Assembly (NCBI GenBank): GCA_973895155.1 | Contig: OZ316895.1 | Location: 4,963,181 to 5,027,180, forward strand | Direction of reading: 5' to 3' | DNA length: 64,000 nucleotides | Source: Marsupella aquatica | Taxonomy: Eukaryota > Plantae > Marchantiophyta | Shown: positions 7,385 to 47,297 of the stretch, in pieces | Numbering within the stretch: position 1 is the first letter of the stretch | Layout of the letters: each line of letters begins with the position of its first letter | Made by a program: the position numbers and the translations under genes | Notes under the pieces: model-generated | The model's input: only the letters and a program-made list of their open reading frames with translations | What the model was told of the DNA's origin: nothing | The model's database searches: none

Positions 7385-7742
7385 ATAAAAGGCGTAAGAG
7401 AAACAATCGTACTGAAATCAAATCGAAAACCGGCGGGATGCCAAGATCGGCCGGGAGCATCTAACGAATCACTGTGTGAATCCCGTGTACGGAACTGACG
7501 AGCACTGTCTGAGCTCTGTCAACAGCGATTCAAGAAGAACTGAAAACCCACAAAGAAAGACATGCCCTAAGTAAACAAAGTCCTGGCGTCACACTAACAA
7601 GCGTGTTTGCTTCAAGAACGTCTTGCATTTGCTATAAGAACATGTCGCTAACTCAAGTAGTACACTAGCCCTAACTACATACCTAGCGGGCATGCGAGGG
7701 ACATGTCGATGTGCATAAGAGGCATTGTCCCTCTGCATGACA
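7385..7742 (-). repeat. Terminal repeat segment 'A' (5' end) of copy A1
   Basis: Matches 45202-45558, 62763-63121 and 25612-26611. Begins TGTCATG on the element sense strand. Confidence 0.9.
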
Positions 7743-23840: not shown

Positions 23841-25437
23841 GGTGTGAGGGAGCTCGATTGCCGAGTGAAATCGCTTGTGAGAAAACTTGCTTGACACCCC
23901 GAATTTATCACAGAGGAATGCCGACGATGATTTGCTCGAGGGTGCCACGTTCCAGGAAAACCCTAATTTGTTACAAAGGCTCATCGCCATCAGCTCCGTT
24001 TATGTTCAGATATTTCAGACCCACAGAGCAAAACCCCGATTTTATTCTGGAAGAGAGGATCGACCGGAGGATCACGTTAGGGGAAAAAATAACTACTAAC
24101 TCTTAATTATTTGGCCACTAAACATGTTCAAATGGATAATATTGACATGTTTGTTTTTGTATTCATAAATATGCCATGGTTTTGTATAAACACTACAAGT
24201 TCAACAAACCAAGCTGAGAATATAAAAAAATCATATCATGCTTATATATAAAAATTTATGTATAGTAAATAGTACATCTTTAATGGCAATGTAGTTAAAA
24301 GTTGAAACAATTAATTATTGAAGATTCAATCTTCAGACAAAATTTTAGGTGGTGCTTGTGAAGAATGCAAGGCCAGGATAGGATAGATGGAGGGTTTTCT
24401 CTGACACCACCATGGATATATGAAAGGAGTACCAAAACTTGGGATGGATCCACATAGAAGAGTTTAAATTGCTCTGATAGCACCTTTTATAGTTTCAACT
24501 GAAATGTGACCTGTAAATAGATTCTTGACGGTTCCAGTTAGTTTACCTGGCTGGTAAAAGTAGTTGGTTATGCCCAAACTACACAGGGTGTCCTTCCCAA
24601 AAGTTGAGTTGTCCAAAGTATTTGGGTGTTCCTCATGAAAGTGAAGGGTTGGCTGGCAATCGGTTTATAGTATTTGATCATTTTTGCACTGATTGATAGT
24701 GAAGCAAATAATCTCACAAAAAATCCCAAACTTTTGTAATAGATTGGACATCACAAAACATGTTGTCAAAACTTGAACTGCAAAAGAAATCTAAAAGTTG
24801 TCCAAATGAGCACAAGCCTGCCGAAAATCAAATGCATGAGTCCATTAAAAACTAGTAGTTTACAGTTGTTTGGGCTCCTCTAACAACTACTTAGGGCGTC
24901 ATTCTCAAAAGTGAAGACTCAGTCCTTCCAAAAGCATTGGGTAACTTTTTCTTTCTGGTGTAAACTACCAGCCCATGGGACAAAGGGCAGTCTCACCAAA
25001 AAGCCCAAGGGCTTAACTAGTTAGTGTAGTTTGAGGATACCACGTCCTTTCCTGAACTAATAAAATACCTCTGACTTTCATAAATCAATTATTCTATTTA
25101 AATTACAAACTAACCTATTTTACTATAAAATATATTTTAAAAGTAACATTTGCTATTTGTGTATAGTAACCATCTTATTTACTTCCTAAGCTTCATTAAA
25201 CTTTAGTCAAAATAGTATGAAGATACCTTTTGGATTGCAAGTCATGCCTACAAGCTTTTGTAGTTCACCCAATGAAAGTGCAGGAGAAAGTCCTTGATCC
25301 AGGCCTTATATTGTGTTTGTGAAACCTGGATAAAATTGCAATTCATGTTTTAGGAATATTCTAAGCATTTTGATGCAAAACACTGCTTTACCATAACAAG
25401 ATACACAATGTTGGACAAGACAGTGCTTGGATGGACT

Positions 25438-26789
25438 TGTCGTGACATATAGTATCGTAGCCATAGTGTATCGAAAAATACAAGTCACCGGCAAGGCATA
25501 TGTGCAAGCTGCTAGCAACCAACATGCATAGAAAAAGTCCCATCACATTTACAAGTGCCAAGAAAAAGCAAATGAGGTGGTATGTAGTAGTGGAGGTGTA
25601 AACCTCTGTATATAAAAGGCGTAAGAGAAACAATTGTACTGAAATCGAATCGAAAACTGGCAGGATGCCAAGATCGGTCGGGAGCATCTAACGAATCACT
25701 GTGTGAATCCCGTGTACAGAATCGACGAGCACTGTTTGAGCTCTGTCAACAACGATTCAAGAAAAACTGAAAACCAACAAAGAAAGACATGCCCTAAGCA
25801 AGCAAAGTCCTGGCGTCACACTAACAAGCACATTTGCTTCAAGAACGGCCCAGACTTGCTACAAGAACATGTCGCTAACTCAGGTAGTACACTAGCCCTA
25901 ACGGCCCCATTCACAATTGGGTGTACCTCGTAGGAACCACTTTCAGGACTCAAAAACATGCTTTTTTAGTGAAAAATAACTTTCGTAACATGGAAAAAGG
26001 TTCATCATGATTTTATGTCAAGACATTTAAGTCTAATTTTTTCACAAGACTATTTTACATGGCGTAACCTACCTCACCATGTAGATACATCAAGTTTTCA
26101 ACTATTTTAAGGGATCCTTTTATTGATGGCCCTAAATAAGCCAAAATTACTAATTATTTTTGTCCTATACATAAAGATTTAGTGTGTGTCACTATTTAAG
26201 TTTTGAAATATAAGATTATGCTATTAGTATGCATGCTTTGGTAAAATTTCATTGTCTAAAATGCATTTTTTAGAGTCCTTTTGAGTCCTGAAATGATGTG
26301 ACCCATTGCGTGACAAGTTCTTTTATCAATCTTTGAAGGACATATAAAGAAAGCTTCAAAGTCTCAAATGCTAGATAGTTTAATGAATGTTACCAACCTC
26401 TAGGATGTTTATTAAGTATAGTACATCAAATTTTCTATATCATCTCCTTACACCCTAAAAATGATATCCTAAAGCATAATAAACTATGGTCACTTTTGAG
26501 TGTGACGTTCCTTTTGGGTCCTCCAATTGTGAATGAGGCCTAACTACATACCTAGCAGGCATGCGAGGGACATGCCAATGTGCATAAGAGGCACTGTCCC
26601 TCGGCATGACAGCTGTCGTGACATATAGTATCGTAGCCATAGTGTATCGAAAACATACAAGTCACCGGCAAGGCATATGTGCAAGCTGCTAGCAACCAAC
26701 ATGCATAGAAAAAGTCCCATCACATTTATAAGTGCCAAGAAAAAGCAAATGAGGTGGTATGTACGTAGTGGAGGTGTAAACCTCTGTAT
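25438..26789 (-). repeat. 3' split-repeat block B1-GC-A2-B2 of copy A2
   Basis: 25438-25611 repeats 26614-26789. 25612-26611 (minus the MITE) repeats 45202-45558. Junction TGACA-GC-TGTCG at 26607-26618. Confidence 0.92.
25903..26540. mobile_element. 638-bp AT-rich MITE (PIF/Harbinger-like) inside repeat A2
   Basis: 18-bp TIR GGCCCCATTCACAATTGG / CCAATTGTGAATGAGGCC (1 mismatch). Flanked by TAA(C) on both sides. Absent from the other A segments. Confidence 0.85.
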
Positions 26790-29700
26790 CCCCCCAGACC
26801 ACAGCCAAAAGGAGGGCTGAAGAAAAATCAGGTAGCATGTGGAGCACAGGAAGGGCAAAACCATAACCCTTCTGGCACCTGGGTAAGTTCAGGCCGAAGG
26901 TAGAAAAGATGGTACCCTCCATTGCAATTGTCACACAGCAGCATCTGGTCAGCATCATCAATTCGTAAACACACTTTGCAAGGGTAGTCCACAGGTGGAA
27001 TCCAAGTAGAAGTCACAATGGTGGGATCCAGATTAGGCAGATGACAAGGGGCGCAATTCTTGGCATTGTCAGCAATTGTGCGCCCATTTGCCCCTTGTAA
27101 CTCTAGCACTCCAGATGGTTGAATAGCTTTAACCCTGAGAATCGTATGACTGGTAGAGGTGTCTAGGGTGTCGTTAGCTTGCCGCTGCAAGTACACAAAA
27201 TCTCCCACATCAAAATTCCTGACCTTGGGCTGAAAAGTGCCCCCTCATGTGTGTGCATAATGCAGTGTGTCCCTGTCTTGTGCAATGGCCAAATTCTCCA
27301 TGGCCATGGGCATAACTCTCCTGAATAGGGCAGCCCTCTCAGAGATCACATCAGACCAAGTCACAGCTGAATCCAAGTCCACCACCTGAAGCATGTGAGC
27401 AGCAATAGCAGAAGGTGGAACTGGGTGACGACCAAACAACAAGAAGTAGGGAGAAAAGTTAGACAGTGATGCATGTCTGAACATCCTATACCCCATGGCA
27501 ATGTAGGGTAAGGCCAGATCCCAATCCTCCTTGTTTTTGGTGAGGCAGATCTTTCGGAGGCCCTTCTTGCATGTCTGAACTATGCGCTCTGCCAAGCCAT
27601 CTGCCTATGGGTGATCTCGTGATGTCCAACGATGATCAATGAGGGCCTGATCAAGCAGCTCCTGGAACTCTCCTCTAAACTTTGAGCCCTGGTCAGTGAG
27701 ACATTCTGCACAAGCTCCAAAGCGGCTGAGAACTTGTTGCAAGAATGCCTGGCTGGTGCTACGGGAGGTCTTATCCGGCAATGCCACAAGTTCTATCCAC
27801 TTGGAGAAATGCTCTATCATGAACATGATGTAGAGATTACCCCAAGACGTGAGGGGTAATTCTCCAGCCAAATCACATGACCAGCAATAAAACATGCCCT
27901 GAATAGGGAGTGGATGAAGTGTGGGTTGCCGAGATGTGAAAGAAGTCCTCACCCTATCACATTGTTCACACCGGGCAATAACATCTCGAACCTGGCCATG
28001 CATGCCTCTCCAATGATAATGAGGGACCAAGAGGCTGTAAGTCCTCTTAACGCCAAAATGACCAAGCTCATAATGTACCTTACGGATAAGGCCAACCCTC
28101 TCATGAATGGGTGGAACCACCACTTCCCTGTTTGGCAAGCAGCGCACGAGATGATCTCCCTTCCACAAGTAACGCTTGGACCTTTGCTGAATTTGGTCTC
28201 TCTGGGCAGTAGTAACATGTATGGGGTACTCCCCATGCTGCAAAAATCTTAGAGTGTTGTTGTCCTCCCATATGTCCACCACAAGTTGGTCAACAACATA
28301 GCATGGCAGCAAAGCAAGATAGGTAGATGCATGAAATGTAGGCAGGATGGAAACCTGGTCAAAATCCTGTCGTGCATCTGAGGAATCATTAGAGGCAATC
28401 AAAGGGCTGCGGGACATAGTGTCAGCATTTTGATGTGTCACACCAGGCCTATGAATTACCTCAAAATCATACTCTTGGAGTATGAGCGCCCAACGAGCAA
28501 GCTTGCCATTAAGCTTGTCGTTGGTCATCAACCACTTCAAGGGCTGGTGGTCGGTGTAGAGAACAAACCTAGTCCCATAGAGGTAGGGCCTATAATGTAT
28601 GACAGCCCACACAACAGCAAGACATTCACCCTCATAAGAAGAATAATGACTCTCTACTTGATTGTTGCTCCTGGATGCATAGGCAATGACGTACTCTTTA
28701 CCTTCCTCATCATGCTGGCCCAGAATGGCACCAATCCCAAGGGCACTCCAATCTGTGTGTAGCACAAAGACCTTGCTGAAATCAGGTCTTCTAAGCACCG
28801 GGTATTCTGAGAGCTTCTCCTTCAAAGTGGCAAATGCTGCCTCAGCATCTGTACTCCATGTCCAAGTCACATTCTTTTTCAACAAAGAGTACAATGGATG
28901 TGCAATGGTACTGAAATCTTTGATGTAAATCCGGTAGTAATTGCACAACCCAATAAAGCTCCTAAGAGTGTGAACATCAGTAGGAGTGGGCATTTCCAAG
29001 ATGGATACCACTTTGGCCCAGTGAGCCATGGTTCCATTTGGAAGAATGCGGTGCCCAAGGTATACTACTGATCTGACAGCAAATTCACACTTCTTGGGAT
29101 GTATCTTTAGGTTCACCTTCTTAAGCCTCATGAATAGCTCCTCAAGGTCAAGTAGATGTTGGTCAAATCCTTTGCTGTGGACCAACACATCATCAATGTA
29201 GCATTTCAGAAACTCAACACCTTGAAGAACCTGGTCCATGACTCTTTGAAAGAATATGGGCGCATTCTTCAAGCCAAATGGCATCACCAACCACTCCCAT
29301 AGTTGGTTATTACCATGGAAAGTTGTTTTCTTGCGATCCTTTGCAAGCAGCAAAATTTGGTTGAAGCCTTGCCTTAGATCCACAAGAGTGAAGATGTCTG
29401 AGTCTCCAATGCTATCAAATAGCTCGTCTGGCTGCGGCATGGGGTACCTATCCTGGGGTGTGACCAGGTTCAATGGCCTGTAGTCCCCACACATGCGCTT
29501 CTCTGTCCACAATCCACTGGAATTCTTCTTTGCTGGCATCACTGTAGCTGCTACAAATCTGATGTAGATGGCTGAATAAGACCAGCTTCATAGAGCTCTT
29601 GGCACCTCTCATCCACCAGCTACCACTCATGCTTACTCAAACGGTGTCTCCGCCTGAAGATAGGTGTTTCATCAGCCAACTCAATGGAGAACTGCATAGT

Positions 29701-30162
29701 CTTGCACTTACCCAAGTCCTTCATAGAGAAAGCAAACACATTCTCATGATTGCTTGAGGAGCAAATTCAGCAGCTGGTCCTTCTGTCTTTTACTCAGGTG
29801 GTTGCCCATGATGAATGTGTAGTTGGCAACACTAGGAATAGGACCTGATGTACTCGTGCTTGAAGAACCAGAAGTGCTAGCCTCTCTACTGTCCAAGCTG
29901 CTAGCATGCTGCTGATAAGGTGATGAGGCCTCGCCAAGGCCTGTTGTACCTGCTGATCTGGGTTGGTCCACACCATGAAACTCAGAAATAATGTCAGCCA
30001 CATTACAAGGGACCTCCTCCCCCCAACACTTGGCTTGAAGCGGTGAGTGTTGAATAGAGGTAAGTGCACCTGGTCTGGATGCCATGTAACAGCACCATGG
30101 AGTGGTAGGGCTGGAACTCTAGATGCTGAATGAATGTACATCTGAAAAAGGATGCAAGTTAC

Positions 30163-31103
30163 CAGAAGCCAAGTGAGAGCATTGAGATCCATTACCCTGC
30201 CAAGTAAAGCATTCCTGGCCAACCTGGTGATTTTGGTGTGACATGTAGTACCGGGTTGGAAGCCCATACCCCGTTCTCTCTCCTCAGGACTAGGTTCATC
30301 CCATGTACCGGTAGAATGTCGATAAACCAGGCCAGGACCATCACCCTGAAAAGCATGTGCACCGGGAAAGGATACAAATGTAGGCCAAGCAGCACGGGGC
30401 TGTCCAATGGTATTGGCTGGATACCAAGGTGCTGGCTCTTGCCGTGTAACTGGTTGGCAAGAACTGTCAGGATCCAAAATCTGGTCCACTATGAGGTTAG
30501 TGTCCCTGGATGTGTGGTGAAGAGCTAACTCCAACAAGGAAGGTGGTGCAAGGTTAGTCCAAAAGTTACGAAGATGATGTGCATAAGAACCACAGTGCAT
30601 TGCATCAATGAGAAGGGGTGGTCCCAAGTAGTGTTGGACCACACTGAAATCCTCTTTGACCTGTGGACGCTGGTCAAACTGAGATGGAGTATTCTCAATG
30701 ATATAACCAACAGCAGGATAAAGGGATTGAGCCTAGGTGAGAATCTGAACCAATGCTGTGAAAAGGCCAGAATGAGAGTCATGCAATCCAGCACCATGAC
30801 CAGCAGCTGAAAACCCTTGGCATTCCCAACCAGCTATGATCAAATCAAGGGAACCAAGAAGGGTTAAGTGTCGGTGCTGGACAAGCTGGATATCTGGAGG
30901 GAAGAAAGAAAATGCAGACTTCCATGCATTGTGTGGAAACTGCTGAGGAAATCGTTCTGAAAATTCTAGCAGACGAGATTCAGCCACTTGCCTTGCACCT
31001 GGATCAATGTCCACGTAGATGTACTGCTTCACCACCATGCCGGACTGTAGAAGAGCTTCCAGGCCTGTAGAAATGCCACCAAAAAGCTCAAGCAATGTAA
31101 GGC
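30163..31103 (-). other. DNMT3-like methyltransferase domain of A2
   Basis: LLELFGGISTG, IIAGWECQG, ENTP, AHHLRNFWTN, ERERGMGF, RNALLGRVMDLN. In-frame stop near 30733. Confidence 0.88.
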
Positions 31104-33923
31104 CATCCAGAGCAGGAGTCCATGTAACTGGTGCGCTCAAGATTGGGGCTATTGGCTGTCCATTGTGCTGCCCAAGGTCTTCAAACTTGCGCAATGCAGC
31201 CACCAAAGATCCATGGGCTGCTTGGAGCCGTTGTACCACCTCTGGTTGATGATCCACGTTGCTGGAAAGTGCTGCTATACGTGTAGCAGCATGTGCAGCA
31301 ACCACCTCATCGTCATCCTCCTCAATCCAATCCTGCAATGGGTGGTTGACATAGGTAGCTGTGTGCACTGCTTTCAACACACAGTGGTGAGCCATAGGTG
31401 TATGGGCACCATGCAAATCAAGTGGAATGTAGCCCAAGTGTGAGCCATCAGTATGCCAATCAACTCTGTAGTATGCATGCTCATGCCAGTTGTCAATGGT
31501 AAAACCTGGTGGGAACAAAGCCTCCTGGCCAATGAGCACATCATACGTAGTGGCATTGGTAACCAAACATCTGACTGGGAAATGCAATTCCTGATCTGTA
31601 CCTCCATTAAAAGTGAGAGTGAGTAAAGTAGAACTCTCACCCAGCACATCCTCCACAGTGCCACTAGCAGTCCAAATATGCTACCTGGATTGCTATAAAT
31701 GATCAGTCAGCAGTCCCATCTTCTTGGCAAACTGAATGCCCAATATCACTGGTTGAGCGCCTATGTCTAGCATGACCACCTGAGGAGTGTGACCCTCCAA
31801 CTTGACCGCTGAATTCCTGTTATCAACAATGGCAATGGTGGTGGAAACTGAAGTCTTGTCGCTAGGCACCACTTTTGGCAGATGATGAGGTACCTTGTGA
31901 AGGGAGTTAGTATCCATGGTCTTTCCACTCAATAGCATAGTCAGGAAAGATGGAGTAGCATGAGCAGAATCCAGTGTAGCTCTGGTCACACAATCTGCAG
32001 CAATACTATCATCGCTACCACTGGAAATTGGTACTGGGATAGCCAAACCAGTGGAAGCATGTAATGGAGAAGAAGAAGGTCCAGTATGTACATGAGATTG
32101 GACCTCCAAAACCGGTGTCACAGGGGCTGATGAAGAATGCAGTGAGCCCTCTAGCGCTCTGATGACAGCTCTAGCATCCAGCTGTAAATCATGGCAACTG
32201 AAAAGTGGAGTTGTAAGAATCCTTTGTGCCATACCGGAGGTGAAATGCTCAAGCAGCTCAGGAGAAACAACTCCCTGTGAAATGTCAGCAACACCTGGTG
32301 GTGGAATGGATGTAGCTGTAGCTCCCTCCCCCCTTGCCAACAAGGTGCGCTCTTCAGCAAGTGTGAGTGGCTGAAAGGATTGGGGCATGACAGCCCGAGC
32401 TCCCCTGGCTCTAGTCATAGGACCAGCAGCAAGACCATCATCCTGTACAATGCGGCGGGTGGGAGCAGTACGGGAAGCAGCACTGGCCTGCTGGTAAGCA
32501 AAATAGGAAGGGCAGAATGAATCTGAAAATTCTGCCGTAAGGCCAGGCTATGTAGCAGAGGACAACACACACTCACCCATATGAGCATCAAATGGCAAGC
32601 CATAGAAAGAGCGGGGTAGAGGTGCTGAACTGTCAGTGGTGCCTGAGCCAGGGATGGGTTGCACGTGACCAGCCGGTTGAGAAGGACCAGCAGAGGCAGT
32701 TGACTTGCCTTTGATATTGGCAAGTTGGGCACGTAAGGACTCAACCTCATGAGTTAGAGATTGAAGTTGAGTTGCCTGTGCATTGTGAGCCTCCTTCTGA
32801 GCTGGTTACTTCTGTTGCTGCTTGGGCAATTTGTTGGCACCAGGTGCTTTGCCATTGGAAGGAGGAGCAGTTGATGCAATAGGAGCCCTCCTAGCTGGTG
32901 GGGGAGTGGAAACAGGAGCAGGATGAGTGGCCTGTTGTCGTAGCTGCTTCCTCTCTGGGAATTTGGCAAAACAAACTGCTTCCAAGTGACCCACTTTCCC
33001 GCAAAAATCACAAGACAGATCCTCAACAACAATATCACATTCATTAGCCTTGTGATTGGGGTTACCACAGTAGTTGCAAGATGGCAGCATGAAAGCAACA
33101 TGTGCTGGCTTGGTTTTGGAACCGTATGGTGGCACACGGGAAGGGGTGGCCAATGTAGGGGCAGCAGCCTGGTACCTGGATCGCGGTGGACGCGCAATAC
33201 TGGCCTCATAATGTGCATGGGCCAACTCAAGTTTGTCAGTAGTGTCATAGACATTGAGCAATGTGTAGCTGTCTCCAAACTCTGAGAATACTTGCTGCAA
33301 CACTTGCGAATGGAGAGCTGGTGTGCCCTCCAATGCACGAAGATAGCGATGCGCAGCCTCCAGGTCAGTGATGCTCTGGGTGTCCTCCTTCAGCTTGAGA
33401 AGCCGGCGATACATCATCTTCAATGTTTCATCGCGTTGCCTCACAAAGGTAGCCAACTGCATGATTTTGGCAGCACTCTTGATTGGGAATTCCAATTCAA
33501 GAACCTGGAAAAACTCAGCCATTGGATCAGCAAAGGCAGGAGAATCAATAGTGGGAGAAATGCCTGATGTAGCCTGTGCCAAGACAGTGGGAGTTGTCAC
33601 ACCATTCTGAGTAGTGTAGTAGTATATCGTGCTATTAGAGTATGTACGTTTGGTATGAGTGCTATTGGAGCCGATAAGGTTCTGTCAGGTTTGTGTGAGA
33701 GGGTACTTCTCACTTGTGAGGCATTGAAAGGTCATCTTTCAATGTTGAGCCTTGGAGAGAGAGGAGCTTGAGTGTGGCTATGGTGGCTGTGAGCTCCGCT
33801 TGTGTAACGTGGATTCCTTGAGTAGTGCAAGGTGCGTTGGCTTGACATACATGTGTGATCGGATCGGTGCGGGATCGATGGGGTATTGTTGACCGAGATC
33901 GTTGTGCCGATTGTATGGAGATT

Positions 33924-33935
33924 ACATTGAAAGAT
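33924..33935 (+). promoter_or_regulatory. Putative self-priming primer-binding site of element B
   Basis: ACATTGAAAGAT directly follows repeat A1 and is the exact reverse complement of ATCTTTCAATGT at 33734-33745 inside A1. There is no TGG-type tRNA PBS. Confidence 0.7.
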
Positions 33936-36900
33936 CACATTCGAAATCTGTTGTACGGACTGTGCGGACAGAAGTTCGATTGATTGAGTTGTCGACGGTT
34001 CGTGGTAGCTCGGATCGTGTGTTGTTATCGAACAGATTGTTGGTATCTTGACCTGTATCGTTGTTGTCCGATCGGCCTGCTTCCCGATCGATGTACAAAT
34101 CTGTGATTGGTGACAGGTTTTGAGTTGGAGGTCGATTGATGATTCGTGGAGGAAAGCGAATGTTGAGTAGATGTTGGACAGTGGAAGTCGATCCGTGAGG
34201 CTTCAGATCCGATTGCCGGCTACTGTGAGGCTTCAGATCTGATTGTTGGCTACTGTGGGGCTTCAAATCTGATTGCCGGCTATTGTTGGACGATGTTGGC
34301 AAGGCGCAGGTGAAGCGATGGCTCTTTTCCTGAAGGAACGGAGCTGCCAATGCCCCGTGCGACGGTATCATCATTTCAGTGAAAGAAACGAGGGTCAAGG
34401 GTGTTGAATCAAGCTGCTGCCAATTCTGTGGAAGGGCTGCGTTTTTCATGAAGGAAATCAACAGTTTTCGGGAGCTTTTCGTGAAGGAAGTAGTCGTTTT
34501 TGGGGTTAGGTGTGAGGCGCACGAGGTCACCCATCCCGAAAGTGCTCACGCGAGGCGACGCGTGAGGTCACCCATCCCGAAAGTGCTCCCAACCGCGAGC
34601 GCGAAGTCACCCATTGCGAGCGCAGGCAGGCGTGAGGTCGAGGTCACCCATCCCGGGGCTATTCCGGGCCGTGAGCGCGAGGGGAGGCACAAGGTCGAGC
34701 GCGAGGAGGTCACCCATCCCGGGGCTATTCCCAGCCGCGAGCGCTTAACTGGCAAGTTCTCATCCCACCTTGTGTACACACAAGCTTTGACAACTTGTTG
34801 TTTAGATTCAAGCGCCAGGGGGCTTTATACACTTCCCGGTTTGTTTAGAGGCCTATTCTAGGCCAAATCAGAGGCTGTTTGAGGGTTTTTGATACTTCTG
34901 AGTCCATCTAGACTCACAGATTGAACCAATTTTGCCTTGGTTCTCATCTACAACATTGGAGTGCCATTGTGAAGCCTATTATGAAGGCTCTTCCTTGAAC
35001 CTTATGCACATTGTCATATTGATTTGCATTTGCTTTTGTGTGGAGAGTTGAATGGTATCCATTCTTGTTTCTGGATCCTCTTCACACATGTTTCCTGTTT
35101 ATGCGCCATGTTAGTTTCATGTGGGCGCTTGATTCCATAGGAGTGATCCGGGTTTGCAACTGGACATTCTAGTGTGCTGTGTATTTCTCTCTTGGTGATG
35201 TTGGAGTGATGCCCAACACACCATGGTGAGTGCTTGTGGTGCTGACAGGGATAGATTGCCCTTAGGGTTAGCACATAGATTAGGTTAGGGTTGGTCACCA
35301 CGGATTCTTCTGGTGCTGCTGGATTACCCGATGGACGACGGACCGGTTTCACTCGGAGTGGGGCACAGTTTCGGCCAGCGGCATTGGTAGCAGTCAGCAG
35401 TGCAGCTTCAGACAGTGATTCTGATGAGGACTCAGTGACCAGTTCTCCTCATCATCAGGTGGTTGCACCTTTGTTGTGGGATATGGACGAGATGTACGGG
35501 GCTACAAAGGGCCCACGACGATACTCTGGTGCAGTTGGCACAATTGATCTGGATGACTTCATCCAGGAGTTTGATACGTGGTGCGATATGCAGACATTGC
35601 GTAATGTCACGTTGTTTACCCCTTTCATGGCATGGAAGGGATTATTCCAACATTTGGAGGGGCCACCCATGGATGACTACCATGAGTTTCGGAAGGCTCA
35701 TTTGGTTGAGATTGAGGCATGGAGGCAGCATTGGTCACCTAATTACGTGTCCATCACCTATGGCACTAGTGTGGCTGCCCAACCAATTGCCACAGCTGCT
35801 GCTTCTTCTAGCAGCACTAGCCAGAGTGGCACACCATCCACCAGCAGCACTCCAGCAGCATCCACCACTACTCTTGCCGGTGTGATTGTGACAGGAACTA
35901 GAGTTGCGCCAGCATTTAATCATGTGGTGGAATTCTTTGAGGTACTGAAGCAGAACTATCAGGGTGTGAGAACTGATAAGTTGAAGGGTCTTCAGGAGTT
36001 CCAACGCAAGACTGGAGAAAGCCTACGTGAGGCATACACACGTATGCGCAGATTGATCACTGTCACCAAGGGAGTGACAGAGGCTCAGGCAGTCCAATTT
36101 TGGTATGCAATTCTGGACAGAGAATTGCGACGCAGAGTGAGAGATGTCACTCTGCTTAGGGATGCAGATCCCACATTAGCAGTTGTTTTCACCCTTTCTG
36201 AGCGCATTGAGCTCAATATGGTGAATGAGAAGGTGGTGACTTCCGAATTTTCCAAGGAAGCACCAAAGGCTGCATCTACATCCACACTAGAAGCCTACTG
36301 CACGAGAGTCTACCAGCCAGAGACCTGTGCCCTCTTATGTTGGATAGCAGTCAGGATGTTGGACCTGTGGTGGGGATCATGCACAGAGATATTGTCCAGA
36401 TCATAGAGGATCAGGGGGAGCATCAGCGCCTGATCAGCGACAGTGTGATCACTGTGGAGCTCCTGGACACACCAAGGATAGGTGTTTCTCACTCCACCCT
36501 GAGTTACGGAGAGGAGGATCCCGTACACATGATCAGGGAAGAGGAGGAGGAGGTAGAGGTGGTGGACGTGGTCGTGGCATGCCACATGCAGGGAGACAGG
36601 GAGGTGACGCTACCCCTACTGTAACCATAGATCCAAAGGATGCTAAGATTGCTCAATTGGAGCAACAACTAGCTGCCATGGCTAGTTCCCAGGTGAGACC
36701 TAATTCTGGTGATGGGGCATCTACATCCTATGGACCTTCCACATCCCATGGTCCTTCCACATCTTATGGAGCTGATGGAGACCTTGCCACCATGGGATTC
36801 ATGTATGGCACTGCACATATTGATGCATCAGCAGCTTTGACACGTGGGGCAGCCAAAGCTCTTGAGCCCCGAGGAGCAGTAGTGGAGTTAGATCCACAAA

Positions 36901-38117
36901 GGGGGGATGCACGTCGGCAGACAAAGCTTCCTCAGTCTTTTACATTGTCAGAGACAGTTCAGACTGCCTCTATGAACCCGGTTCGGACAAACCCTGATGT
37001 GGGTAAGTTGGCAAAATCAGGTAGTGATGCAGCAGGGATGACAGGTACCTTGCTGGGGGCGGCTACTGCCATAGTACGCACCCCATTATTTTCAGCGACA
37101 GACATGCTGAACTTGGGAGTTGGTCCTGCAGAAGTGTTCAGATTGGCAGCTACACTCTGTGAGGACACTCCAGTGGTTGCTTCCCATGCAGAAGCAATTT
37201 GCAGTGTTGATGCAGTGAAGACCATGCCACCTATTGCTACTAGTGAGACATGGCATGCAGCAACAACGAGGTTGGTGGATTTACCAGCACGCCCTGCATT
37301 TGAGAGGACTAGGTTTAAACCTAGTGTTGTGTCATTGGATAATCGGAGTGGTATCTTCCGATTAGTTGGGCCTTCTGGAGCAGTATACCAGCTAGAGAGA
37401 GTGTTATTGGATACTGGTGCTCAGCCCTTGATGTTGGGGAAGTCTGCCATACGTGGATTGGGATTGCGTCCAGAGGATTTGGAGGATTGTCCCTTTCCCA
37501 TTCAGACTTCATTGGGGGGACCTACACCTACACAGCATATCACCAGGAGACCACTTGATTTGAGGATTCAGGAAGGTCATACCACAGATAGCTCACAGAT
37601 ACAGGCGCGAGCTATTCTGACTAAGGCAGAGTCATATGATGTGTTGGTGGGATGTACAGTGCTCTACCCCATGGGATTTATTCTTGATTTTTGGGAGGAA
37701 TCAGTGTCATATAGACCTGATTGGCAGTCAGGAGATGCTCGATTGAGCAAATTGCCAGTGAGATTTAGTGGACCTATGGGAGGCCCTAAATCCACACCAT
37801 TGTCTTTGGCAGCATTCAGTGGTGTAATTGCTGGACCTGATGATTTGATTGAGGGTAATACGCATGCAGCCGATGTTCCACCATTGGAGGAGTCTCATGA
37901 GGAGCACATCATGCGAGGATTACCTGTTGGCAATGTTGTGCCACCAGTGTGGGGCACTGCACAAGCCTTGCCACAGGCAACAGCACGATTGGTACATGAT
38001 GCATGGCGTCATGCTTTTACACCACAGTCAGGAGCAGAGCAGTCTCTTGCAGATGGACCTGTGACTCTTTCACCATTGGATACCACTCCTATTGCTTGGC
38101 AGTATCCACCGGAGGGT

Positions 38118-39060
38118 ATTTGTTGGTTGGATCTTTTTGGTGGGATTAGCACTGGATTGGCTGCTATTCTTCAGGCAGGAATTCCTGTGCGTCGTTATTT
38201 GTATGTGGAGACAGATGAGACAACACGGAGGGTCTCATTACGACATGTGGCTATGTTGGTGGATAGATATCCACAGTTGCTGCCAGTGGATGCTGTTCGT
38301 GGTTATCAGCATGCACTACCTGCTGATATTTCATTGTTGGGGGCGGATCATCTACATCGTGTTGGCCCCATTGATTTGGTGATTGCTGGTTGGCCATGTC
38401 AGGGCCAATCTAGAGCTGGCATTGGGCATGGACTTCATGATCCATGCTCTGCATTGTTTTGGGAGATGTTACGGGTGTTGCGTCACCTCCAGCTACATCA
38501 GACACAGTCTCCAGCATACATTTTGGAGAATGTGCCATTGTTAGGTGATGATCGTAGTCGGATTGTTGCCAGTGTTCACCAGGTGAGGTCTTGGATTGGA
38601 CCTGCTGTGTTATTGGATGCTGCATGTGTGGGTTCTCGTGCACATCGTCCACGCTTGTGGTGGACTAATTTGATCCCATGTGAGGTGCTGAAGCGTGCAT
38701 TTGACAGCATTCCACGCTCACCAACCTTAGTGGTGGATAATATTTTGGATCCAGGGCGTCGTGCACAGGGTGTGACCCAACCTGATAGACCTCCATTGGC
38801 AATGGTCAATGCAGTTGGGTGCCCACGTTGTGCATTACCCACTCTTGTTAGCCACTCTACTTCATATGCATTCAGAGCAGGTGGCCCTGGACTTGTATGG
38901 GACACAGCTCTCCAGCAGTTAGTGGAGCCTACTGCTGATGAGAGAGAGCGTGCTATGGGATTTTTGACTGGCACCACTGCAGTTGCCTCTGTGTCAGAGG
39001 GTTTGCGGCGCCAGGTTCTTGGTCAAGCAATGGATTTGAATTGTTTGACTTGGATTATTA
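38118..39060 (+). other. DNMT3-like C5 cytosine methyltransferase domain of element B (uninterrupted)
   Basis: WLDLFGGISTG (I), YVETD (II), VIAGWPCQG (IV, catalytic PC), YILENVP (VI), AHRPRLWWTN (VIII), ERERAMGF (IX), RRQVLGQAM (X). Confidence 0.92.
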
Positions 39061-42000
39061 GCTTGGGAGTAGCTGAACAGTTGCGGATGCGCTCTGCTGG
39101 AATTACTGATTGTCCCTTGGTGAGCTTGCGGTCCACTGAGACAGTATTCACCACAGCTGGGGGCGAGCAGACAGTCCATGGACCTATGACAGGATTGGCG
39201 GCTGGACAGACTGTTGAGCAGGAAGGGACTACTCAATCTACTACTAAATAGCAATCATCGGCTATCTCTTCTACCCTACAAAGAGATATTAGGGATTTGG
39301 TGGAGAGTTGGGAACCACAGCTTGGCCCTAAGTTAACAGGGGAGGAGAGACGTTGCATGCATCGATTCCTGAAGAGTTATTGGAATTGTTTTGCATTCAG
39401 CATGAAGGATTTGGGGACATTGAAGGGCCCTGGTATTCAGATTGAATTGGCTAGTGATGCGCCAATCTTTCATAGACCATACCGTTATAGTGACATGGAG
39501 AGAGCTCTGATTCAAAGCAGAACTCAAGATTTGTTGGAGGCTGGATTGGTGGAGATTTCATATGGGGAGTATGCATCTGCCACAGTGATGCTAGCCAAGA
39601 AGGATGTGCAAGGCAATTACACAGATAGGCGCATGTGTGGTGATTATAGACCTATTAATCGCCAGACAAAATCTGATCGATATGCCATGCCCACACCTGA
39701 GGAGATCTTTGATGCTGTGGGGCATGCAAAGGTTTTCAGTTCATTGGATCTGAGGGCAGGATACCATCAGCTTCCAATTAGGCATGCTGACAGGTCCAAG
39801 ACAGCATTCTAGGGGATTGATTCTTATGGCAAAGATCGTTTGTATCAATGGTTATTCTTACCATTTGGGTTGAAGAATGCACCAGTTGAGTTCCAGAGAG
39901 TCATGGATCAAATCATTGCAGGTTTGGATTTTGTTAGATGTTATATTGATGATATTTTGGTCTATTCTTCTACTGTGGAAGAACATCAGCAGCACTTGCA
40001 GACTGTGTTGGAGAGATTGAGAGCACATGGGTTGAAGCTCCATCCTAGCAAGTGTAAGTTCTTCCAAGACCAGATTGAGTATTTGGGCCACACCATATAC
40101 CCAGGGGGATTGGGTGTACAGCAGACTAAAGTGGAGGCCATTACACAGATTCCTTGTCCTACTGATGTGAGTAGAGTTCGTGCATTCTTGGGATTGGCGA
40201 GCTACTACAGGAGGTATGTTAAAGGATTTAGCCAGCTTACTAAACCTTTGACCATACTCACTAAGTTGGATCAGGAATGGATTTGGGGTGATGACCAGGA
40301 GCATGCCTTTCAGGAGTTGAAGCAAAGGTTGGCATCATCCCCTATTTTGAGAAGACCCATTTCAGGCAGACCATTTCAGCTACACACTGATTGGAGTGGA
40401 GTAGGACTTGGAGCAGTGCTGACTCAGAAGGATGATGAGGAGAATGAGTTTGTTGTGGCTTATGCCAGTAGATCAAACAATTCAGCAGAGGCTAAGTATA
40501 GCTCTTATGAGGGAGAGTGTTTGGCAGTAGTGTGGGCTGTTGCACACTTTCGTTGCTACTTGTTTGGTAACCCCTTCACCTTGATCACTGATCATCAGCC
40601 TCTTAAGTGGTTAATGGAGTCTGACAAGCTTACAGGGAAGCTTGCACGATGGGCATTGTTGTTACAGGAGTATGATTTCCAGGTGGTGCATAGGCCTGGA
40701 AAAGTGAACTTGGATGCAGATGGATTAAGCCGCAATCCATGTACCAGTCAGCAGGATGAGACTGGAGCCAGATGGCATGATGAGTCAGATAAGGAGATGG
40801 TGCCAGGATGGCATGCATCTGCCTTTCTTTGTTGGGTGCCAGCATACAGTGGATCTATGGACTCTACTTCATTGGATGGAGTGGGTGATGAGTCTTCAGA
40901 TGTGGATGTTGGTGAGGTAACTTCTGGACAACAAGATATTCACAATGATGTGAGAGTGTTGGAATATCTGCGCAATAGTTCTATTGTTGGCAGTGTTGAT
41001 GCCAAGGAACGTGACAGGGTTCTACAGAGAGCCAAGAGGTTTCGATGGGAGGGAAACCATCTTTTGAGAGTACTGCATGATGGTAGGATGTTGGTGGTAC
41101 CAAAACCATCACAACGAGTACATTTGGTGCGACATGCGCACGAGGAGTTGGGTCACTTTGGTGTGAAGCGCACTTACAGCTTGCTGCAGACGCAGTATTG
41201 GTGGCGTGGTATGCACACTCATGTCCAACAGTTGATAGCTAAGTGTGTGGTATGTGACAGAGTGAGAGCATCATTTAATGCTCCCACTCCCCAGTTGCAC
41301 CCGTTATCGATCATGGGTTTGGGATATCGTTGGAGTTTGGATTTTGCTGGTCCATTACCTCTTACCCAACGTCATAATCGGTATGTTTTGGTCATGGTGG
41401 AGCACTTCTCCAAGTGGATTGAGCTAGTGGCGTTGCCAGATAAAGCCAGTGGAGGAGTTGCTGCTACATTTTTGGATCGTGTACTCAGTCATTTTGGAGC
41501 ACCAGCTGAGGTGTTGACTGATCAGGGAACTGAGTTCCGTGGAGAGTTTGAGAGTTTGTGTGAACAAGCTCTGATTGATCATCGCACTACCTCTTGTGAT
41601 CATCCTGAGGCAGATGGATTAGCTGAGAGAGTTGTGCAAACTGTGAAGAGAGGATTGCGTAAGTATGGCTTGCAGGTTGGTCATCTGGGAGATTGGGATC
41701 TCCAACTACCTTGGTTAGCTATGGGCTACCGTTTCAGTCGGCAAGCATCACTTGCATCCTTCTCACCCTACTTTTTGCTCTATGGTAGAGAGCCAGATTT
41801 GCCAGCAGCTATTCGTCGTCATGCTGCACTAGTTGTGAACTTGGATGATCCTGATGTTTGGGTCAAGGTGTGTTCAGAGAGAGCACGGGTATTTCAGAGA
41901 GTGATGCCCATGGCTTTTGACAACCTTGCCATTGCCCAACATCGTGATACTTTGAGGTATGCCACTATTCGTGGAGGAGGTTACCGTGCAAGCATTCGAC

Positions 42001-42236
42001 GATTTCATCCTGGTGATTATGTTTATTTGCAGCAGACAGCACCCACGACACTTGATGTGACCGCAGGCCGGATAATCTTACGTGTGCGTGAAGTGTTGCC
42101 TTCTGGTGTCCTGATGTTGGAGGGACGCGATGGTATGGTTTGGAAGGATCATGTGCGCAACTGTGCACCATGTCACCTTCCCAACATTGATGGTACAGTA
42201 GATCCAAGCTTGGCACATGTTCGTGCTGGCTTGAAA

Positions 42237-42377
42237 TGTATGTTGTGTGGATCTGCTCAGGGAGCAGCTACTATGTTGATTTGTGATAAGTGTTCTAGAG
42301 GATGGCACATGTCATGTTTGACACCACCATTGCAGGTGATTCCTAGTGGATCATGGTTGTGTCCTCAGTGTCGGTGA
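42237..42377 (+). other. PHD finger at the integrase C-terminus of element B
   Basis: CMLC...MLICDKCSRGWHMSCLTPPL..IPSGSWLCPQC, a C4HC3 pattern. Confidence 0.92.
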
Positions 42378-42550
42378 AGCCGACTAGTTATCATTTGTGT
42401 TCTCTTGGCAGATATGGATTGCAGGTAGGTGATCGATGGGGCTCACTTGCACCCGGCCTCCTGATCTTCACACCTAAAAAGGTGTATATCAACCTTGTAG
42501 AACTCATGGCTAGCTAGAGTTAGAGGACCTTACTCCCAGCTAGGGGGGCG

Positions 42551-43157
42551 ATTGTGGGTTTTGGACATGTGTGGACATGAGTTCCACTTGTATTCCATTC
42601 TCTTGTATTTGTGATGTGGCAGTGTGACTATGTCTGGATGTATGTGACAAGCGATGTATGTTGTGTAGCGATATGTATGCGCACGACAGCTGTCACACCA
42701 TTCTGAGTAGTGTAGTAGTATATCGTGCTATTAGAGTATGTACGTTTGGTATGAGTGCTATTGGAGCCGATAAGATTCTGTCAGGTTTGTGTGAGAGGGT
42801 ACTTCTCACTTGTGAGGCATTGAAAGGTCATCTTTCAATGTTGAGCCTTGGAGAGAGAGGAGCTTGAGTGTGGCTATGGTGGCTGTGAGCTCCGCTTGTG
42901 TAACGTGGATTCCTTGAGTAGTGCAAGGTGCGTTGGCTTGACATACGTGTGTGATCGGATCGGTGCGGGATCGATGGGGTATTGTTGACCGAGATCGTTG
43001 TGCCGATTGTATGGAGATTATTGTGGGTTTTGGACATGTGTGGACATGAGTTCCACTTGTATTCCATTCTCTTGTATTTGTGATGTGGCAGTGTGACTAT
43101 GTCTGGATGTATGTGACAAGCGATGTATGTTGTGTAGCGATATGTATGCGCACGACA
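42551..43157 (+). repeat. 3' split-repeat block B1-GC-A2-B2 of element B
   Basis: The 138-bp B1 (42551-42688) equals B2 (43020-43157). The 329-bp A2 (42691-43019) equals A1 (33595-33923), with about two substitutions seen by eye. Confidence 0.95.
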
Positions 43158-45189
43158 GAGTAACTGGCGCAGTGGTAGGAACTGGAGTAGGAGGGGAAGT
43201 AGTAGGAGCAGCAGCATGGGCTGCAATGGCATTCTGTAATGCCAGTTGTGAGGCAGCTGCAATTGCACTAGCATAGGGAGGATTAGGCAATTGTGTGACA
43301 GCAAGCAACCGTTGAGAGTGCTGCTCATACACATCGAAAGCCTCATGGTGCACATACCTGGCTAGCTGCTTAAATGCAAAAGCATTTGTGAAATTGCTGC
43401 CGTACTTCAACTCCAATTTGTAAATGATAGTGTAGAAAGTGGATTTGAACTCACGCAAAGAAACAGTGCCTGGCCGCCCACTGAAGCGCTCAATGCGGCT
43501 AGATGAGTGACTGGCATCCATGCTGTATGTCGGTGAAGCTAGAACAATCACTGATGCAAAATTGCCGAGACTCCAATGAAATGGGCACCAACGGTCGTGG
43601 ATCACTCCGTAAGTGGTACCTGGGCGTTGGTGGCGATGAGCTGCTACCTCCCGGCTCGTTTGCTGACATGCTATGTGACAGTACCCAAATTGTGCAAAAT
43701 GTGTAAAGACTAAGAAAACCCGTCACTGTCAAAAAACCGTCAGGGAAAACGGACCCTTAAAACCTCAAATGTACCCGTGTTGTGCTTGCCGGAAAGACCA
43801 TTTGATGTGTATGCCGGGCCCTCACCGTGATGCAGATAAAATGTGGTGGCATCAAAGAAATCCGGGAAGAATAGGCCCTTAAACGTGAATAGGCCCCCCC
43901 CACCTTAAGTGTATACACATCCGGGCCCCATTGTGGACCCGGAAACTGCAGCCGGACCGGCCGAGTGTGTATACACGCTCGTGGCACGCTCCCTATGCAG
44001 CGGTAGTCGGAAGGCGTCGAAAAGAGGCGAGGAGGTACTATGACCGGCGAGGGAAAGAAATGGGAGGCAACTCGTGAAGGCAGCGGCCGAGGCGAGGCAA
44101 GGCGAAAAGGAGAGAAGTCGGCAGAAAAGAAACAGGCCCCTCTTAAGTCGAGGGGGAAGGAAGGAAAACGGTCAAAAAAGGGAAAACCGGGCACGATGCC
44201 CTGTGCATTGACAGTCGATGGTGAAGGGCGAGGCAAAAGAAAACCGGACCCTAATTAATTCGGGCCAGCACTTGAGGCGAGGCAGGGCGTTCAGAAAGAA
44301 AGGAGCCCCTGACGTGAGCCCTCCATAGGGCTTCGTGCCCCCCCAATATGAGCTCCCGAATAGACGGGGCTACGAGCTCCCCTCCCCTCCTGAAAGGTTC
44401 TGTGGGCCTCGTGCCCTGGTGAAAGTGTGACTCCCGAGAGAGGGAGTCAAATGTACTCCCCTCCTCCCTTAAATGCTTCATAGGGCCGTGTGCCCTCTCC
44501 TTGCGCTCCCCCCTCCCCTCTTTTAATGCTGTATTGGGCTTCGTGCCCTCTCCTGGCAGTCGCTCCCCCTCCTCCCTGCTTTCGCTTGTACTTGGCTCCC
44601 CCCTGCCCCTGCATTAATGCATAATAGGGCCTCGTGCCCTCTCCATGCTTGTGCCTCAACTTAATCCCCCTTCCCTACTGTGTAATTGTTGGCAACAGGC
44701 GAGGGAGGAAGAAAAATGCCGAAGGGAGGGCGCACGGCCCTATGCGCGACCCAGGGCAATGATGAGCCCCGCATGTGTATACATAGGGGAGGCAGCTCAC
44801 GACGGTAGCTGCGAGGGGAGGCAAAATGAAACGACGGCCGATGACAGAAAAGAAAGAACGGGACCCCAAAGGGTCGTCAAAACGTAAGGGGAAGGGAAGG
44901 TGGTCGCGCTGCGACCGGAAAACACCGAATATGGCCCGAAAAAGGTCGTGGCAGTCAGCAGTCGGCAGCCATAGTCGAAAGCAATTATGGAAGCAGATCG
45001 AGTTGCGGCTGGCAAGAAAAATCCGGGCCCCTTGTTATGTGTATACACTTAAGTATACACATAACACCACCATAAACCCATAACTTTTAACTCAACACTC
45101 CGATGTCCGTCGAAGAAATTGCAATGGCTTCACCAGAAATTGTCGAGATCATCACAAGCAATCTTCTTCCCCTCACCACTATCTCGACG

Positions 45190-45201
45190 AGTTCTTCTTG
45201 A
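45190..45201 (-). promoter_or_regulatory. Putative self-priming PBS of family A
   Basis: Plus-strand AGTTCTTCTTGA abuts repeat A and is inverted-complementary to TCAAGAAGAACT at 45347-45358. The same pairing occurs at 62751-62762/62908-62919 and, with 1 mismatch, in A1. Confidence 0.7.
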
Positions 45202-45558
45202 ATAAAAGGCGTAAGAGAAACAATTGTACTGAAATCGAATCGCAAACCGGCAGGATGCCAAGATCGGCTGGGAGCATCTAACGAATCACTGTGTGAATCC
45301 CGTGTACGGAACCGACGAGCATTGTTTGAGCTCTGTCAACAGCGATTCAAGAAGAACTGAAAACCAACAAAGAAAGACATGCCCTAAGCAAGCAAGTCCT
45401 GACGTCACACTAACAAGCACATTTGCTTCAAGAACGGCCCATACTTGCTACAAGAACATGTCGCTAACTCAGGTAGTACACTAGCCCTAACTACATACCT
45501 AGCGGGCAGGCGAGGGACATGCCAATGTGCATAAGAGGCACTGTCCCTCGGCATGACA
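45202..45558 (-). repeat. 5' repeat segment A1 of copy A2
   Basis: Matches 25612-26611, 7385-7742 and 62763-63121. Confidence 0.92.
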
Positions 45559-47297
45559 GACTTTTGCAACCTCATGCATGGACTACTTTAATATATCACT
45601 TTTTAATCAAATAGCACATCTACTTCGTATGATTTCATCGTTTTGGGGATTGAAAAGTGCTTGGTTCATCAGATTCCTGTCGTTAAATGTCCTAGTTCAT
45701 CCAACTATCAACTTCCATAAGTTGGGTCATTTGAGTGAACCCAGAAAAATCTAATCTATCTAATACCACTATAATCAACAATGACCTCCACATTTGGCTA
45801 TTCCTGTAATTGATATGTAGGAAAACTTGGGGGAGGAAGTAGGTAGCCATCTGACACGTAGGAGAAGGGAGGAAGGAAGTCACAGGTAGGGTTTCTAGCA
45901 GATGATGTTGAAGGGAGAAGATTAGTTTGCTACTAAGCTATGGTGGTGTTCTGGTGGTGTGGTCAAAGAAGCTATGCTGGTCTGAGAGCCTTCTTATCTC
46001 TCCCTTAGCTAGTTGCAGGTTGGAGGGCTTGGGGCAACTGGGACAACTTCAGGTCAATGGCAGAAAGTAGGGAAAGGGGAACAAGGGCTCCATGTGTCCG
46101 TGACAGCCCCTTGCCACCTTCCCCATGGTTGCTGTATGTGGTGGCCCTGGGAGTGGATGCACTCATAGTCCTTACACATTCCACACTGCATGAACCTAAC
46201 CCTTATTTTCATTTGTCCACTACTATTTGTGCAATTACTTCTCGCCATTAGTCCAAGCAAGACCAAACTCAATTAGACACTCATTTGTTAGTCATGATGC
46301 TGAATGTATGTCCTGTTCAGTTGGACGTTTTGCTTTGCCTGGCTGCTTTGTATCACCTGGCCCTTTCCCATATCCTCCTAGGTATTTGCAGTGAACACTT
46401 CACTTCACTGGGCCATTTCTCATGTCACCCTTTGTTTCTCCCTGCCCCAGGACTGACATTCCACCTCACCAGGCCTTTTCTCCTGTGACCCTTTGTTTCT
46501 CTCCACGCAAGGACGGACAGACAAAACTGTTTGGTCGAGAGCCCTCACTTTGGTTGGGAATTTTGTGTGAGGTTGTGAACCAGCGTATCAAATAGCTATG
46601 TAATGTGGACACTCCATCAGACTTTCCCTTGTGGCCCTGGCAACGTCCCCATCAACCTTTGTTTCCCCCTGCACACTCCTTTGTGGCCCTGGGAAAGTCC
46701 CAATCACCCTTTGTTTCTCCCTGCAAAGGGCCAAGACACATAACTATTGTATGTCGAAGTGCTGTCTTGCATGTGAAAGTCTCCGAGGTTTGGGCCCTTA
46801 ACATTCCCAAATATGCAATTCCCAAATATGCAACCTAAAAGCACATTTTGCTGTGCATAAGATCTCTGTCATTTTTGGTCTCCTTGTCAAATCAAAGGTG
46901 GGGACCTCAAGGGCCATAAAGTGTCAGCCCTTGCCCTTGGAAACCCTAAATTCATGCCACAAGTCTCGCTCATTCATATTCCCATCGGTTCACTTCAAGG
47001 CCGATCTGTTGAGGACCTTCTACATGCAAGAAAACCCTAAGCTTTCCCTTTGGTTGGGAATTTTGTGCTAGTTTGGGAACCAGCATATCAAAGAGGTATG
47101 GACGCAGAATCCAAACAATGAGATTGAGCATGAATTTTAAGCTCACGTAGTCCAACAACTCTTTACTGCAATATGAATTCACTACGAGTAATTGGAGTCT
47201 GTCGAACTACAATTCAAAATAATTCAAATTAATGGTTCCTTTTTTATTTGCCTCCGCATTCCGGCCTGAATGATTGTGTCACCAAATTTATGACCGC

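Follow-up and report, generated by a model that had tools for sequence, protein, structure and literature searches.

Split-repeat retrotransposons in a liverwort genome

The stretch of DNA analysed here, referred to as the window, comprises 64,000 nucleotides of contig OZ316895.1 from the liverwort Marsupella aquatica (GCA_973895155.1, positions 4,963,181 to 5,027,180), and it contains retrotransposons with Gypsy-type coding regions and split terminal repeats. The element in question, copy A2 of family A, is interrupted within gag by element B, the window's member of a second family, family B (Table 1). Self-comparison and reading of the sequence give for copy A2 the order target-site duplication (TSD), A repeat, internal region, polypurine tract (PPT), B repeat, GC, A repeat, B repeat, TSD, and element B shares this layout. 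Successive repeats are called A1, B1, A2 and B2 in copy A2, and a1, b1, a2 and b2 in element B. A preliminary description had set out this order for copy A2, with its G6 PPT and the TSD GACT, and the present analysis confirms it. In both window elements B does start directly after the G-run PPT and A does end directly before a 12-mer resembling a primer-binding site (PBS), as had also been described. In terms of a conventional long terminal repeat (LTR), B1 would be the first part of U3, and A1 the second part of U3 followed by R and U5.

The repeats also record the relative ages of the two insertions. In copy A2, B1 and B2 show 3 differences in 176 aligned columns, and the A1 and A2 repeats show 14 in 358. 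In element B, a1 and a2 differ at 2 of 330 positions and b1 and b2 at none of 137. With 2 differences in 467 repeat positions against 14/358 (A) and 3/176 (B) in its host, element B is the younger of the two, and its empty site, with the 4-mer present once, is found in copies A1 and A3 of family A. The A2 repeat of copy A2 carries a 638-bp insertion that is absent from the preliminary description; it occurs as a single copy in the window and postdates copy A2.

Table 1. Retrotransposon features of the window (positions count from its first nucleotide)
Feature	Position	Strand	Remarks
Family A copy A2, whole element	25438..45558	-	10,554 bp once element B and its TSD are subtracted
TSD GACT, 5' side of copy A2	45559..45562	.	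AGTC on minus strand, GACT on plus strand
TSD GACT, 3' side of copy A2	25434..25437	.	
A1 repeat	45202..45558	-	357 bp; begins TGTCATG
12-mer within A1, complementary to PBS	45347..45358	-	predicted self-primer and transcript start
PBS	45190..45201	-	non-tRNA type; immediately 3' of A1
gag, downstream part	32806..33594	-	CCHC knuckle (weak match, E 0.0012); element B interrupts gag
Frame with C5 DNA methyltransferase domain	30733..31680	-	Pfam PF00145
Reverse transcriptase, RNase H, integrase zinc finger, rve core	27605..29587	-	
End of pol with PHD finger	26828..27244	-	stop codons break the version in copy A2
G6 PPT	26790..26795	-	
B1 repeat	26614..26789	-	176 bp; directly after PPT; ends CACGACA
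GC spacer between B1 and A2 repeat	26612..26613	-	
Palindrome GACAGCTGTC spanning B1-GC-A2	26608..26617	.	predicted integrase site
A2 repeat	25612..26611	-	carries the insertion below
MITE-like (miniature inverted-repeat transposable element) insertion	25903..26540	.	AT-rich; ~18-bp terminal inverted repeats; GTTA duplication
B2 repeat	25438..25611	-	174 bp; blunt join to end of A2 repeat; CA terminus
Element B, nested in gag of copy A2	33595..43157	+	TSD GAGT at 33591-33594 and 43158-43161
a1 repeat of element B	33595..33923	+	
Predicted self-primer of element B	33734-33745	+	within a1
PBS of element B	33924-33935	+	adjoins end of a1
Frame with DNMT3-like domain, element B	36348..39251	+	best solved match DNMT3A, E 1.8e-9
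Reverse transcriptase, RNase H, DDE integrase, PHD finger, element B	39252..42377	+	single stop at 39812
PPT GGGGGGCG of element B	42543..42550	+	
3' repeats of element B	42551..43157	+	b1 42551-42688, GC, a2 42691-43019, b2 43020-43157
Family A copy A3	53457..63121	-	short form A-internal-PPT-B; TSD GTGA
Family A copy A1	1..7742	-	5' part only, starts with A and PBS; cut by window start

The junction, the palindrome and self-priming

The repeats of the two families have little in common beyond one short motif. Alignments between families score 19 for the A repeats and 18 for the B repeats, within the maxima of 28 and 28 reached in 300 shuffles, and this agrees with the earlier statement that they are unlike outside the junction. 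Only the junction aligns, reading CACGACA-GC-TGTCA in both, and each element contains one of the two copies of CACGACAGCTGTCA in the 64 kb. The spacer is 2 nt long in 24 of 24 distinct junctions (GC 14, AC 6, GT 2, AT 2), and judged by sequence these variants are GC or its apparent deamination products. Among more distant contigs (41-46% amino-acid identity), GACAGCTGTC follows a G-run in three of six, where about 0.05 would be expected; in L083, L084 and L087 (41-43% identity) it lies 56-240 nt after the run. It is absent from L088, a canonical Gypsy element with an ordinary LTR pair.

The second shared feature is the relation of the PBS to the A repeat. In both families the 12 nucleotides of the PBS are reverse-complementary to a 12-mer within A, a match reached in 2 and 0 of 20000 shuffles. 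Priming by a tRNA was rejected. The paired sequence differs from family to family (A, B, the L007 family, L081/L035 and L083). In the L007 family and L065, the pair is kept with 0-4 mismatches in 14 old 5' ends. Complementarity of this kind is the signature of self-priming of the Tf1 type, which is accordingly predicted here. A PBS-like copy that could form a hairpin also lies just upstream of the self-primer, inside A, at 33720-33745 of the window and in L007, L065, L081 and L035. The hairpin is seen in four families and not in family A, and one may speculate that it masks the 3' copy of the primer sequence.

The joint between the A2 and B2 repeats (A|B) falls on the same two boundaries. By eye, the base that precedes the PBS is joined there directly to the base that follows the PPT in both window copies and in 10 of 13 distinct metagenome loci. 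The three exceptions among these 15 have extra bases, which are PPT-like in L009 and L022 and belong to an aged junction in L065. Together, the extra PPT-like bases and the exact boundaries suggest that the A|B joint is made anew. At L022:10837-10855 the joint contains two PPT bases as well as a 17-nt insertion similar to A sequence close by.

A separate observation concerns a single site present in two assemblies (L076:3361-3878 and L078:1412-1929). There, PPT-B-GC-A-PBS is followed by an inverted stretch of A, from base 168 to base 1, which stops exactly at CA and is succeeded by unrelated flanking sequence. The inverted arm differs at 12 of 180 bases, and is thus old rather than a read chimera. 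The stop exactly at CA implies that the end follows the sequence of the site and not the end of the reverse transcript. The simplest reading of this one case is that a PBS copy at the end of the complementary DNA (cDNA) folded back on the primer sequence, and that the product still ended at the site.

Distribution of the layout

The metagenome survey covered the best 80 of 272 matches. The end of B1 is readable at 51 of the 80 loci. With L018, L033, L035, L076 and L078 left out of the count and L016 scored as short despite its damaged end, 22 loci (14 distinct) continue as B-NN-A-B, where NN is the spacer, and 24 (20 distinct) stop after B. The boundaries of A and B are constant in the 14 distinct full 3' ends. 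All 12 distinct intact 5' ends begin at a TG-type start of A with no B ahead of it, L019, L020 and L045 being excluded because the start of A is cut. Overall, the full form makes up 16 of 37 distinct 3' ends and the short A-internal-B form 21, while the mirror form (A-B-A-internal-B) is found in 0 of 16 5' ends (Fisher p 0.001 against 16/37; p 0.009 with the metagenome only). A perfect 4-bp TSD brackets 10 of the 12 elements with both ends, and the termini are of the TG...CA type, in keeping with the ends and the 4-6 bp TSDs of Ty3/Gypsy elements. One internally deleted short form was noted at L006:8588-11565 (2978 bp, A-PBS...integrase-PHD-PPT-B), with a TSD matching at three of four bases.

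In a scripted census of the L007 family, not de-duplicated, the 36 A copies with both ends comprise 18 of the form B-A-B, 14 flank-A-PBS and 2 B-A-PBS, the remainder being one with a degraded B and one misfiled. Solo A|B units were considered and rejected, the sole candidate of the census (L031) reading B-GC-A.

The layout also extends to contigs filed under other organisms. In a contig survey of 29 loci, L081-L088 were examined and L089-L109, 21 short matches to the integrase core, were left out. Contigs of plant or algal origin that are placed in prokaryote genomes widen the range, and L082 shows B1-GC-A2-B2 with identical copies of B. The near-intact L081 (9285 bp) was assembled as a circle with a 127-bp end overlap and is filed in a cyanobacterial metagenome-assembled genome; L082-L088 are eukaryotic retroelements likewise placed in prokaryote bins. 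Two scans of viral contigs returned 0 loci.

Public sequencing runs, four for each family, were searched for the joints; they come from two or three studies, and one run is possibly the window's own source. For family B the exact joint is present in 4/4 runs and is dominant, with minor variants that trim A and retain the start of B, and in two runs 24 and 43 contigs, respectively, show its CA ends next to differing flanks. One variant, seen in three runs, joins 33866/33867 to 42551, so that A is about 56 bp short and the start of B is exact. In family A, 3/4 runs contain the A|B joint and 2/4 the B-GC/GT-A joint. The contigs of these runs cannot be phased across A, and are therefore uninformative on the mirror form.

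Within this material, no canonical LTR pair was found in any clade member examined. Where Ty3/Gypsy elements have two full LTRs flanking the internal region, the first ending at the PBS and the second starting at the PPT, the 5' end here is A only and the 3' end is B-GC-A-B or B. The preliminary description had proposed a survey of relatives, and in the one made here the boundaries are fixed rather than random.

Coding content and relationships

Families A and B both encode the reverse transcriptase and RNase H of Gypsy elements, an rve integrase, a C5 methyltransferase and a PHD finger, as judged by Pfam. The order is that of Ty3/Gypsy, with gag followed by protease, reverse transcriptase, RNase H and integrase, although a protease match was obtained only in copy A3 and L081. 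The best solved match of Pol is the Ty3 Gag-Pol (E 1.8e-79) and those of the methyltransferase are DNMT3A/B/C. In the integrase of element B the residues D, D and E are all present. No tyrosine recombinase was matched in Pfam at E 0.01 among the frames of at least 85 aa in 25438-45558 and seven frames of three relatives; with an rve integrase present, a hidden tyrosine recombinase was rejected. The scanned frames also gave no Pfam match to a chromodomain. The methyltransferase domain lies upstream of the reverse transcriptase in A, B and L081. L087:122-12900, unlike these, has one 3265-aa frame with the domain between RNase H and integrase, then an extra 713-aa frame without a Pfam match, followed by a G-run and the same palindrome.

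The Pol proteins of the two families share 52% amino-acid identity. Named relatives among the 120 of 2798 matches listed come from Calypogeia, Riccia, Marchantia, Closterium, Klebsormidium and Tetraselmis. In a quick tree of 54 rows, from which length filters removed L001, L065, L075, L087 and P0091, families A and B and the named relatives form one 38-row clade, apart from ordinary Gypsy proteins (97 in the Shimodaira-Hasegawa-like approximate likelihood ratio test, SH-aLRT). Family B groups with liverwort proteins and family A, weakly (88), with Klebsormidium. One chromodomain protein falls outside the clade in this tree, which contains no Tf1 or Tcn1 reference; a chromodomain and descent from the chromovirus branch characterise the Tf1/sushi type. 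Because A and B belong to one clade, the layout was inherited, and an independent origin in the two families is rejected. The preliminary description was therefore right that chance or an assembly artefact is unlikely, given 14 distinct 3' ends and the joints in public runs, but not that the two occurrences are independent. It had also pointed to a conserved replication mechanism; the layout does recur across the clade, and a putative mechanism is set out below.

A proposed route of integration

Since A ends at the PBS and B starts at the PPT, reverse transcription should rebuild B-GC-A at both ends of the DNA, and A|B would then be the blunt join of the two ends of that unit. The inserted element, in turn, has one half of the internal palindrome at each of its termini. 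On this anatomy it is very probable that the integrase site is internal to the LTR repeat. As for how the site is reached, the reading favoured here, with moderate confidence, is that in this Ty3/Gypsy clade resembling KnitGypsy-Dnmt3 the integrase cuts the palindrome inside the LTR after the ends left by reverse transcription have been joined. The RNA would start inside A1, and its first 12-13 nt would fold onto the PBS and prime in the manner of Tf1, a type of self-priming in which the primer stretch is the RNA's 5' end and is cut by RNase H. Ordinary strand transfers would give linear DNA with B-GC-A at both ends and without TG...CA termini, and joining of the U5 end to the U3 start would produce a 2-LTR circle with a blunt A|B junction. 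The integrase would then open the PBS-side CA^GC^TG with a 2-nt stagger and insert the two 3'-processed ends, leaving A-internal-B-GC-A-B. A 2-nt staggered cut after each CA yields processed ends as used by DDE integrases. The full form keeps R at both ends of its RNA and would thus be able to copy itself again. The short A-internal-B form, which might come from cutting at both sites, from a cut 1-LTR circle or from later B-by-B deletion, should be a dead end. Both foamy virus and HIV-1 integrases have been reported to cleave palindromic LTR-LTR junctions (PMC1180852, PMC1905944).

Several observations weigh against this route. A 2-LTR circle has two locally identical sites and the mirror form is 0/16 at 5' ends, so that a symmetric cut of the circle does not fit and the model needs a site bias. 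The integrase may prefer the PBS side, the mirror form may collapse into the short one, or the joint may arise by another route; a PBS-side bias could, speculatively, stem from the earlier completion of that LTR relative to the other final one. Full and short forms stand at 16:21, which equal cutting with collapse of the mirror form would fit as well. Moreover, L035, L081 and L083 read PPT-B-NN-A-PBS, an order assumed to reflect collapsed assemblies or tandems. The distant contigs L083, L084 and L087 showed no B2, and a search for the self-primer pair was negative in L084 and L087. In the old L007 family, B1/B2 identity is only marginally higher within copies (0.932) than between them (0.925), too small a difference to be informative, and the corresponding comparison of A1 and A2 is likewise too weak. 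Finally, two related families have a TATA box about 30 nt ahead of the primer, and in families A and B none was seen.

An identical layout, with its TSD and blunt A|B joint, is also predicted if the integrase cuts the linear cDNA at the internal palindrome and holds on to both pieces, the leftover blunt ends being joined in the chromosome after insertion. Short forms would follow if the leftover ends annealed through B or A, and this would account for their large number (21/37); the likeness of the 17-nt insertion in L022 to nearby A sequence is also as in end-joining repair. However, every insertion would leave a chromosome break, and the joint is exact in 12/15, cleaner than break repair would generally be expected to give. 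A site bias is required here as well. This alternative is rather unlikely.

Less likely still is copying in the manner of Ngaro or PAT, in which the RNA would reach the end of B2, the parental B2 and A|B would be copied over, and switching of the template from one split repeat to another would produce a circle whose sole junction, B-GC-A, is opened by the integrase. The A1-B1-A2-B2 order is indeed that of PAT, Ngaro and VIPER (PMC4157794, PMC6681497), and the absence of the mirror form (0/16) would come for free. Nevertheless, in each of the families tested the joint coincides precisely with the edges of the PBS and the PPT, in some cases with PPT bases, which argues that it is made from the ends of reverse transcription; in addition, TSDs are present and the search for a tyrosine recombinase was negative in the frames scanned. 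An origin by chance rearrangement, from canonical LTR elements lying in tandem or nested, or through misassembly can be set aside as highly improbable, for although tandem and three-LTR structures are described as common in plants and L081 was assembled as a circle, the boundaries are fixed across the clade despite unrelated repeat sequences, each whole unit is bracketed by one TSD, the repeat copies are aged rather than identical, and A|B joints are present in several public runs.

Comparison with known systems

The closest published counterpart is KnitGypsy-Dnmt3 of Klebsormidium nitens, to which the legend of Fig. 4c attributes a DIRS-type repeat structure with Gypsy domains, Fig. 1 of the same paper defining the DIRS structure as A-coding-B-A-B (de Mendoza et al., 2018; PMC5890265). 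The elements described here share its Gypsy domains, the DNMT3-related domain in Pol and the A-coding-B-A-B repeats. In the accessible text, the account gives no PBS, PPT, TSD, junction, PHD finger (0 occurrences) or mechanism; a yeast test of the KnitGypsy DNMT was inconclusive, and the element is reported from one alga, whereas the layout occurs here in a land-plant genome and many relatives. Three K. nitens proteins, which may correspond to the published elements, sit in a 28-row clade of the quick tree (SH-aLRT 99); P0052, P0066 and P0074 are candidates for the elements of PMC5890265. A literature search that left out subscription papers, Repbase reports and bioRxiv supplements found KnitGypsy named only in that paper, and found no description of the present integration route for LTR retrotransposons. 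The layout has thus been published once without explanation, and this Gypsy lineage is barely described.

Other systems share single traits with these elements. In Tf1/sushi elements and Tcn1 the PBS is likewise complementary to a short stretch of the 5' repeat, with no tRNA PBS (PMC7175516, PMC4600332, PMC6317226). Tf1, however, uses 11 nt and has ordinary LTR pairs, as opposed to 12-13 nt and a split repeat, and in the frames scanned here no chromodomain was found and a PHD finger is present. The literature search returned no text on primer retention in Tf1. PAT, Ngaro and VIPER share the A1-internal-B1-A2-B2 order noted above but encode a tyrosine recombinase. The present elements instead encode a DDE integrase, possess both a PBS and a PPT, end in TG...CA and are flanked by 4-bp TSDs; the likeness is probably convergent. 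Cleavage of the 2-LTR junction by foamy virus and HIV-1 is similar in that a palindrome is cut internally and symmetrically to give processed ends (PMC1180852, PMC1905944). In those viruses, however, the palindrome is the joint of the reverse-transcription ends and cutting restores the normal linear form, whereas here it lies inside the LTR, away from those ends, and its cutting would be the normal route.

Other features of the window

Outside the retrotransposons, an NLR-type gene lies at 11534-16680 on the minus strand, with an alpha/beta-hydrolase frame, an NB-ARC domain and a leucine-rich repeat array with repeats of about 210 bp. A second leucine-rich repeat fragment is found near it at 8579-9355. 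NLR genes of this hydrolase type are linked to bryophytes, and together with the named relatives of the retrotransposons the gene agrees with a bryophyte as the probable host. Minus-strand frames at 19960-20820 and 48777-49361 match Methyltransf_16 (lysine methyltransferase) and CCB1 in Pfam, and are probably host exons. Degenerate short tandem repeats occupy 18354-18838.

Implications

The integrases of retroviruses and LTR elements normally act on the ends of reverse transcription, and the status of 2-LTR circles, as precursors or as dead ends, has long been debated. Taken together, the observations incline us, by a narrow measure, towards a clade spread across green plants in which the ends used for integration are separated from those of reverse transcription: joining of the cDNA ends would be obligate, a DDE integrase would act on an internal CAGCTG palindrome in the manner of a site-specific endonuclease, the 2-LTR circle would be a true precursor, and the PAT/Ngaro layout would have been reached by convergence. 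If true, the clade would offer a natural example of integration whose normal route runs through end joining and an internal palindrome, which would be unusual for this class of element, and the cutting proposed here is testable using a single integrase and a 30-bp substrate. The clade also shows that DDE and tyrosine-recombinase elements can arrive at the same split-repeat design. Finally, software that searches for LTR pairs would probably overlook these copies, of which the examined runs contain many, or assign them a wrong age.

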